From NCBI RefSeq assembly GCF_003334305.1, contig NZ_QOWS01000003.1: 64,000 nucleotides of DNA; one strand, written 5' to 3'. The position numbers and the translations under genes were made by a program. The notes under the pieces are model-generated. The model was not told where the DNA came from. It made no database searches and saw only the letters and a program-made list of their open reading frames with translations. Positions 42,726-43,180 of the stretch are shown one piece after another. Position 1 is the stretch's first letter, and each line of letters starts with the position of its first letter. The DNA is from Escherichia coli (GTDB taxonomy: Bacteria > Pseudomonadota > Gammaproteobacteria > Enterobacterales > Enterobacteriaceae).

Positions 42726-42757
42726 TTGTGTTTCGCTGAAAAGCGATTGTCGTGTGA

Positions 42758-42787
42758 AGCCGGAGTGGGAGACTGCTCCGGCTTTTT
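42758..42787 (+). terminator. Rho-independent terminator of the deo operon
   Basis: Stem agccggag (42758-42765) / ctccggct (42776-42783), then ttttt. Confidence 0.8.
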
Positions 42788-42855
42788 AGTATCTATTCAT
42801 CAATAGCAACTGATTTATAGATTTACTATTATTTTTCATATGGATAGAAAATAAA

Positions 42856-42888
42856 ATCTATTCAAGTATCTATTCACGAATCTATTCA
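42856..42888. repeat. Three tandem 12-bp direct repeats (core atctattca), with a fourth copy at 42791-42799
   Basis: atctattcaagt / atctattcacga / atctattcattt at 42856, 42868, 42880; gtatctattca also at 42789-42799. Confidence 0.7.
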
Positions 42889-43149
42889 TTTATGTTCAGC
42901 CGTCATCCAGGAAGGGCATATCAGCAACTCTGGTGGACAACCATAAATTTCTGCCATTTTGCTTTTGATGTTTGAGCTAAACCGTTCCGTCTTTTCGATC
43001 TATTTTAGAGAATTAATCGAGATACCTAACATTTTACTTACTTCAGCAAGCGATAATTTATGCCTGATACGCACGGCGGCTAGCCAGGAAATACGCTGGC
43101 TTAACATTAAATTGATAATCTCCCGCTCCTGGTTTTCCAGATCGATCAT
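42886..43149 (-). pseudogene. XRE-like HTH reading frame interrupted by an in-frame TAG (49 codons + TAG + 37 codons)
   Basis: Minus-strand ATG 43149 with aggaagg RBS: MIDLENQEREIINLMLSQRISWLAAVRIRHKLSLAEVSKMLGISINSLK, TAG at 43000-43002, then in frame IEKTERFSSNIKSKMAEIYGCPPELLICPSWMTAEHK, TGA at 42886-42888. The two halves together resemble one HTH_XRE domain. Below the 60-aa track cutoff. Confidence 0.4.
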
Positions 43150-43180
43150 ATTCCCTTCCTTTGGTATTTTAATCAGCGAG

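Follow-up and report, generated by a model that had tools for sequence, protein, structure and literature searches.

What does the junction between deoD and lplA hold in an Escherichia coli strain that lacks the HipA-like kinase gene yjjJ? The question is raised by a 64-kb stretch of E. coli DNA, here called the window, in which deoD ends at 42725, lplA ends at 43181 and the gap between them (42726-43180) spans 455 bp. The original prediction, which gave these coordinates correctly, placed a yjjJ of about 1.3 kb here in K-12 and reported that no gene of such size is present in the window. Both statements hold: K-12 MG1655 carries yjjJ (1332 bp, + strand) between deoD and lplA, while the list of open reading frames (ORFs) of the window has no YjjJ-sized entry in the gap, and a tblastn search with K-12 YjjJ yielded chance matches only (E > 1), in the gap as in the rest of the window. 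Our analysis makes it highly probable that the Escherichia deoD-lplA junction is a two-allele locus and that the allele in the window is the commoner one, with its gene pseudogenised. Where K-12 has yjjJ, the window has an unrelated cassette with an 87-codon gene of the Xre-family helix-turn-helix (HTH) type, hereafter HTH87. The claim of a different gene content at a toxin-type locus thereby stands, but the HTH87 cassette is the majority state in E. coli.

The distribution of the alleles was assessed in 5426 complete E. coli genomes. The short interval was contiguously present in 4070 of these (~75%), the cassette alone was recovered by megablast from 3905, and the yjjJ body was found in 1348 (~25%). 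Taken together, the genomes with the short interval and those with yjjJ amount to 5418 of the 5426, so that the alleles are essentially exclusive. An identical gap length, 455 bp, is seen in the window, O157, 2021CK-00607 and E. marmotae, while K-12 and E. albertii, both with yjjJ, agree on 1498 bp; the H15 locus is 100% identical to the window across the 1401-bp query. The original prediction would have been withdrawn by its author if K-12 and most E. coli shared the 455-bp interval: most E. coli indeed share it, K-12 does not. Each allele is also found in a second Escherichia species, hence both are old, and what separates them is a long-standing replacement polymorphism, not a loss specific to this strain. 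A scan of genome contigs for YjjJ with strict peptide patterns returned E. albertii only. Near-identical HTH87 matches were also seen on records labelled as plasmids (for example AP026530.1, 655 kb; NZ_OL790696.1, 4.8 Mb), on replicons of 0.4-4.9 Mb, which are probably mislabelled chromosomes or chromosome fragments.

The features of the locus, from left to right, are the following.

42006..42725, + strand: deoD (purine-nucleoside phosphorylase), the left flank; a 239-amino-acid ORF, annotated as deoD in H15.
42756..42790, + strand: intrinsic terminator of the deo operon; 13-bp stem (42756-42785), 4-nt loop, T run at 42783-42787.
42790..42801, + strand: solitary 12-bp repeat with the core ATCTATTCA at 42791-42799, present in both alleles.
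42801..42855, + strand: AT-rich 55-bp spacer, which in alignments differs between the alleles and also between K-12 and E. albertii.
42855..42890, + strand: three tandem 12-bp repeats with cores at 42856-64, 42868-76 and 42880-88, present in both alleles.
42892..42894, + strand: orphan ATG, the left breakpoint; it aligns with the codon at which yjjJ starts in K-12 and E. albertii.
42895..43180, no strand: allele-specific cassette, which occupies the site of the 1329-bp yjjJ body; blastn and tblastn detect no resemblance to the K-12 interval.
42886..43149, - strand: HTH87, 87-codon Xre-family HTH gene, a pseudogene here (from the ORF, alignments and the HTH_3 domain of the intact protein).
43150..43180, - strand: 31-nt lplA-HTH87 spacer with a Shine-Dalgarno-like AGGAAGGG at 43153-43160 and no hairpin.
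43181..44197, - strand: lplA (lipoate-protein ligase), the right flank; an ORF with the stop codon TAA here.

The content of the gap had been given as the deo terminator, the 12-bp repeats and a short interrupted HTH frame; all three are present, with the correction that the frame is a pseudogenised real gene.

When aligned to K-12 (blastn and alignments), the window is homologous from deoD through the terminator to the first 12-bp repeat, loses homology in the AT-rich spacer, and returns to a near-perfect match across the three tandem repeats as far as the ATG. Homology ends right after this ATG and restarts exactly at the lplA stop codon, with 1329 bp (the yjjJ body) between the breakpoints in K-12 and 287 unrelated bp in the window. 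The lplA stop is moreover linked to the allele: lplA ends with TAA in all 8 of the HTH87-type loci examined and with TAG in both K-12 and E. albertii, which places the right breakpoint at the stop codon. The comparison with K-12 that had been suggested for finding breakpoints was thus productive in locating them, at the yjjJ ATG and the lplA stop, but exposed no duplication or scar there; neither a transposase ORF, a target-site duplication nor an insertion sequence (IS) element was found at the breakpoints. Likewise, blastn at word size 7 and tblastn detected no yjjJ remnants in the window and no HTH87 remnants in the K-12 gap. An unrelated, gene-bearing 287-bp cassette together with the lack of an IS element, duplication or yjjJ remnant argues for replacement and not plain deletion. 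The G+C content of the cassette is 41%, versus 52.5% for the window. An Rfam scan of 41800-43400 gave no match at the gathering score and two sub-threshold chance matches, both to eukaryotic families.

The only 13-nt inverted repeat (42909-42921 / 43148-43160) lies within the cassette. It would pair the Shine-Dalgarno and start region of HTH87 with the 3' coding end of the same gene, and it is specific to the amber haplotype described below. As a mobile-element end or regulatory stem it was rejected, since the complementarity decays uncompensated in O157, 2021CK-00607 and E. marmotae; it probably represents a chance arrangement of the sequence. A 27-codon + strand ORF starting at the orphan ATG was also dismissed as a gene, as the E. 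marmotae alignment row has a stop at codon 12. Beyond the right breakpoint, lplA of the window is 94.5% identical to K-12 over its first 200 bp (43181-43380), and identity rises to 98-99% farther away, by ytjB. Synonymous divergence (dS) of lplA among some E. coli strains reaches 0.26-0.29, about equal to that versus E. marmotae. The raised divergence of lplA beside the cassette could reflect linked old divergence or introgression.

The gene carried by the cassette is interrupted in the window by an amber codon, TAG, at codon 50 (43002-43000; the + strand has A at 43002, and G in intact alleles). The change is from CAG to TAG and shortens the product to 49 residues; the substitutions F16L and L57F are present in addition. 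RefSeq labels HTH87 with 'internal stop' in H15, IAI1 and HS, and an intact example is WP_000566150.1, found in O157 and REL606. By exact 36-mer, the amber variant occurs in 1691 genomes and the intact CAG variant in at least 2036; hence the former is a widespread lineage allele and no private mutation of the window strain. Among intact alleles, the pairwise ratio of non-synonymous to synonymous divergence (dN/dS) is 0.14-0.25, versus 0.01-0.11 for lplA, indicative of a real gene under moderate purifying constraint. The length of 87 codons is kept even in a homologue of 44% identity at the lplA/deoD junction of an enterobacterial contig (L012), to which we return below.

The intact protein matches Pfam HTH_3 (PF01381) over residues 23-76 with an i-Evalue of 1.2e-6, and more weakly HTH_19, HTH_31 and Sigma70_r4. 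Its AlphaFold2 (AF2) model, at a mean predicted local-distance difference test score (pLDDT) of 87.7, has a helical Cro/CI-type fold with predicted helices at residues 22-29, 34-41, 45-54 and 59-69, plus an N-terminal one at 4-18. On this model, the amber codon would remove helix 5 and half of helix 4, so that the product in the window is probably non-functional. The best Foldseek matches were CylR2, SinR, DdrO and P22 c2, at a probability of 1.0 and an E-value of only ~1e-2. Against Xre/Cro/CI-type repressors, the target-normalised template-modelling (TM) score was 0.6-0.78 and the root-mean-square deviation 1.5-2 Å over 53-60 residues. HTH87 thus resembles CylR2, the SinR N-domain, P22 c2 and the C-proteins of restriction-modification systems in its predicted helical HTH fold, and unlike such small repressors it has an extra N-terminal helix. 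By sequence, no solved structure gave a significant match (best E = 0.45).

The HTH87 gene starts 31 nt from lplA, and this spacing is invariant in all short-allele loci examined. The spacer holds no hairpin, which suggests that HTH87 is co-transcribed with lplA, and read-through from that gene would most likely yield, from intact alleles, a small transcription regulator.

Where does such a protein come from? The HTH87 family is exceedingly small, with 38 of 1.84 billion representative proteins at E <= 1e-3, and its full-length members are confined to Escherichia and the one enterobacterial contig mentioned above. Among profiles, HTH87 matches the C-terminal half of phrog_7241 best (E = 3.4e-10, profile positions 54-121 of 122), and the relatives measure ~120-133 amino acids in full length. 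In 4 of 5 distinct contexts checked, namely a metagenomic contig, a Leclercia plasmid, Pasteurella phage Pmp14 and an enterobacterial phage, the relative lies directly downstream of a RelE/ParE toxin gene; in the fifth, there is just a 35-codon ORF upstream. With phrog_7241-type antitoxins such as Pmp14 gp33 and that of the Leclercia plasmid pZ96-1_2, HTH87 shares the HTH and the preceding helix, which align over HTH87 residues 10-77 with 32-38% identity (tblastn). Unlike these antitoxins, however, it lacks the N-terminal domain of ~50 residues (alignment with P0081, P0097 and P0102), and no toxin gene adjoins it: lplA lies upstream, and no small ORF matching a toxin was found beside it, the downstream side being formed by the repeats and the deo terminator. 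HTH87 also differs from phage and plasmid antitoxins in being chromosomal and, apart from the one contig, restricted to Escherichia. HTH87 is most aptly called an orphan antitoxin-type HTH protein of reduced domain content.

A further candidate relative, P0033 (72% identity; Logan contigs L009 and L010), was set aside as a divergent homologue in view of pervasive C-to-T-type substitutions (R>W, A>V, P>L) and of a locus whose translation does not yield the query protein. The two contigs hold a copy of the whole lplA-HTH87-deoD region with an LplA only 60% identical, and they are probably damaged or converted reads and no real lineage. A BLASTP comparison of HTH87 with HipB revealed no similarity, though this negative is a weak one.

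Upstream of the breakpoint, both alleles share the same module. The deo terminator was found by RNA folding, a simple terminator scan having missed it; it folds with -29 kcal/mol (z = -4.11; 0 of 200 shuffles were as stable), is common to both alleles and is conserved in K-12, E. albertii and E. marmotae. The ATCTATTCA core is present in four copies in the window, all of them in the gap, versus 0.31 expected by chance. The 42-bp triple-repeat segment is found at >=95% identity in 5262 of the 5426 genomes, at one place each and with either cassette. A divergent Escherichia (L026, GCA_017278115.1), with lplA 93% and HTH87 86% identical, has a 442-bp gap and two tandem 12-bp repeats instead of three, hence the number of repeat units varies. 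A literature search for the repeat sequence produced just unrelated primer matches.

In the K-12 deoD>yjjJ spacer, an RpoD promoter (TTTTCA-18-TCTATT) and H-NS binding were described by genomic SELEX (systematic evolution of ligands by exponential enrichment; PMC3946193). The window has the same hexamers, TTTTCA at 42833-42838 (-35-like) and TCTATT at 42857-42862 (-10-like, in the first tandem repeat), the former lying in the AT-rich spacer and conserved in all alleles. Together with the start codon, these hexamers of the predicted promoter show that the window retains the regulatory part of the yjjJ locus. The promoter of hipH, as yjjJ is also called, is reported to be under control by cyclic di-GMP (c-di-GMP; PMC11452175), which makes the 12-bp repeats candidate operator sites. 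The window accordingly resembles the K-12 yjjJ/hipH locus in position, deo terminator, promoter hexamers, four ATCTATTCA repeats and start codon, and differs from it in lacking the 1329-bp kinase ORF and having instead the 287-bp cassette with a minus-strand HTH gene. A likeness of the repeats to the TorR 'tor box' (CTATTCA versus CTGTTCA) was not relied on, the 12-bp period being unfit for tandem sites of the OmpR family.

Two observations concern neighbouring spacers. In strain XJ5.2 (L005 3219-4507), which has a yjjJ-type allele, the stretch from the deo terminator to the repeat module has taken up IS200C and IS1A; both elements were seen at the locus in this strain only, indicating that the spacer attracts IS elements too. 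The deoB-deoD spacer (41927-42005) measures 79 bp in the window, H15, REL606, IAI1 and HS and has no homology with its 56-bp counterpart in K-12, O157 and IAI39. It contains a G+C-rich hairpin, GCCCTCTCCC-ACA-GGGAGAGGG, which resembles a small repeat element and is presumably boxC-like. This spacer is a second small replacement polymorphism, 700 bp away.

How, then, did two alleles come about? In the model we propose, both would be built on a shared base consisting of the deo terminator, a sigma-70 promoter (TTTTCA-18-TCTATT) overlapping the four ATCTATTCA repeats, and the ATG. On this base, the yjjJ allele (K-12, B2 strains, E. albertii) would place the body of a solitary kinase toxin of the HipA family directly against the lplA stop, and the short allele (~75% of complete E. 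coli genomes, E. marmotae) the unrelated cassette with its 87-aa Xre-type protein on the opposite strand. HTH87 would derive from the DNA-binding domain of phage- or plasmid-borne RelE/ParE-associated antitoxins and, read through from lplA, may serve as a small regulator that binds DNA. Transcription from the orphan promoter and ATG would run antisense into HTH87, where the ATG forms, on the minus strand, the codon of His86; no protein is proposed for this transcript. The short allele has kept the promoter and start codon of yjjJ as orphans, which makes its descent from an ancestor with yjjJ probable, a direction which we hold with moderate confidence. This ancestor may have had the two genes in convergent orientation, and today's alleles would each have arisen by loss of one of them; yjjJ might have been lost between the near-identical 9-mers TCATT(A/T)ATG.

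The alleles would since have been swapped across phylogroups by homologous recombination in the flanking core genes. HTH87 is intact in REL606 (E. coli B), IAI39 and O157 and amber in HS and IAI1, and yjjJ is found in K-12 and LF82. We take REL606, HS and K-12 to belong to phylogroup A, IAI1 to B1, LF82 to B2, O157 to E and IAI39 to F. On these assignments, all three states (yjjJ, HTH87 intact, HTH87 amber) occur within phylogroup A, which fits movement by such recombination.

Several points weigh against this history. Between K-12 and E. albertii, yjjJ has a dS of 0.156, less than the 0.389 of the flanking lplA, and between species the dS of HTH87 (0.118) is likewise below that of lplA (0.278), which would permit a later inter-species transfer of the cassettes instead of ancient co-segregation. 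The mutual exclusivity follows from total counts and not from a per-genome cross-table; regarding the order of events, no genome with both yjjJ and HTH87 was seen. The phylogroup assignments cover few strains, and the co-transcription with lplA is predicted from a single feature, the hairpin-free 31-nt spacer.

The alternative that survives best reverses the order, with the short arrangement lplA-HTH87-deoD as ancestral and yjjJ displacing HTH87 later in some Escherichia; we regard it as possible, though on balance doubtful. In other genera, the lplA/deoD junction is variously occupied. In Klebsiella and Pseudescherichia vulneris, the junction is an empty gap of ~80 bp with hairpins only, and in Salmonella enterica subsp. 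salamae (L013 7319-12551) it holds a fimbrial operon of the chaperone-usher type with five genes (for two DUF1120 proteins, one PapD-like chaperone, one usher and a protein of 191 aa), which presumably resembles the stj operon. As with the Escherichia cassettes, accessory DNA here sits between convergent lplA and deoD with a different cargo, and the varied occupants indicate that this junction is a recurrent landing site for accessory DNA. The contig L012 is the one that bears on the order of events: behind an lplA whose product is only 89% identical to that of E. coli, and facing deoD, it carries the 87-codon homologue of HTH87, as expected if the short state came first. YjjJ-family genes, moreover, occur on plasmids of E. 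coli, Aeromonas and others, so that yjjJ could have arrived by a mobile element, and the low dS of yjjJ relative to lplA would agree with a late arrival. However, a short-first order leaves the yjjJ promoter and ATG of the short allele unexplained, and yjjJ would have had to land exactly between an existing ATG and the lplA stop. The Escherichia repeat/promoter module was found at the junction neither in L012 nor in Klebsiella, Pseudescherichia or Salmonella, and L012 is a single 1.4-kb contig, its HTH protein a singleton and its LplA without a match closer than ~90%.

Secondly, HTH87 might function as an antitoxin-type orphan regulator linked to the toxin allele, with the alleles as functional alternatives under selection; HTH87 might then bind the ATCTATTCA repeats or, in an anti-addiction role, it might neutralise or repress RelE/ParE or HipH toxins that enter the cell. 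We judge this improbable. Its closest relatives outside the family are RelE/ParE-linked antitoxins, the intact gene is under purifying selection, the repeat/promoter module is kept in both alleles, and both alleles occur in more than one species, all of which speak in its favour. Yet HTH87 lacks the N-terminal domain of those antitoxins, adjoins no toxin and is knocked out in 1691 genomes with no visible consequence, and the distant homologue in L012 has no such repeats. Xre dimers, furthermore, usually bind inverted repeats, whereas those found here are direct. A related reading, to which we attach little credence, is a balanced trans-species polymorphism of a solitary toxin, HipH, and a solitary repressor, HTH87, both set on the shared promoter/ATCTATTCA module; HTH87 or a host factor could act on the repeats, or HTH87 could confer anti-addiction against RelE/ParE or HipH.

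A recent, strain-specific deletion of yjjJ from a K-12-like locus, the implicit reading of the original prediction, is very unlikely. The promoter hexamers, repeats and start codon kept with no gene behind them do look like the scar of a lost gene. Nevertheless, unrelated gene-bearing sequence fills the site, no IS element, duplication or partial yjjJ remnant marks it, and the same 455-bp arrangement recurs in the 4070 genomes and in E. marmotae, which refutes a recent event; given the spread of the short allele, any deletion must predate the diversification of E. coli. Finally, that the HTH frame is a rearranged or inverted leftover of the YjjJ N-terminal HTH domain, for which speak the reported presence of such a domain (PMC8262856) and the shared ATG that both features adjoin, can practically be dismissed, as HTH87 and YjjJ show no similarity in BLASTP or tblastn (a refutation at BLASTP sensitivity) and HTH87 is an Xre/HTH_3 domain with relatives of its own.

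The preferred reading, an old two-allele locus, also bears on what is known of the kinase allele. YjjJ/HipH is reported to be a monocistronic Ser/Thr kinase toxin of the HipA family (PMC8262856, PMC9948734, PMC11452175), and the K-12 protein scores 675.7 bits against NCBIfam NF007297 (cut-off 401). It has been studied in K-12 and an isolate of uropathogenic E. coli (UPEC) as a toxin kinase and c-di-GMP-controlled persistence factor (PMC9948734, PMC11452175). The searchable text of the YjjJ/HipH papers mentions neither an alternative allele nor the absence of yjjJ from most E. coli. In addition, E. coli plasmids of ~90-100 kb (H162-H174) carry a YjjJ-family gene 35% identical to the chromosomal YjjJ, pointing to a second, mobile hipH-like lineage in this species.

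With regard to novelty, the HTH gene or pseudogene is already annotated by RefSeq, and alternative accessory cassettes at a fixed core-gene junction are a well-known phenomenon, hence no new kind of biology is involved. For annotation, the short frame is to be seen as the pseudogene of a real, Escherichia-restricted gene and not as noise. For the biology of hipH, the consequence is that this gene is present in only ~25% of complete E. coli genomes, so that conclusions on hipH are not transferable to most strains: ~75%, including O157, B/REL606, IAI1 and HS, have the 87-codon HTH gene in its place, knocked out in the 1691 genomes with the amber codon. The three states within phylogroup A offer natural 'isogenic-like' contrasts, and the shared promoter/repeat module, present with either cassette, represents a defined target for finding the regulator of hipH. 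The locus is thus a clean natural system, with yjjJ, intact HTH87 and amber HTH87 arranged around a common regulatory module.

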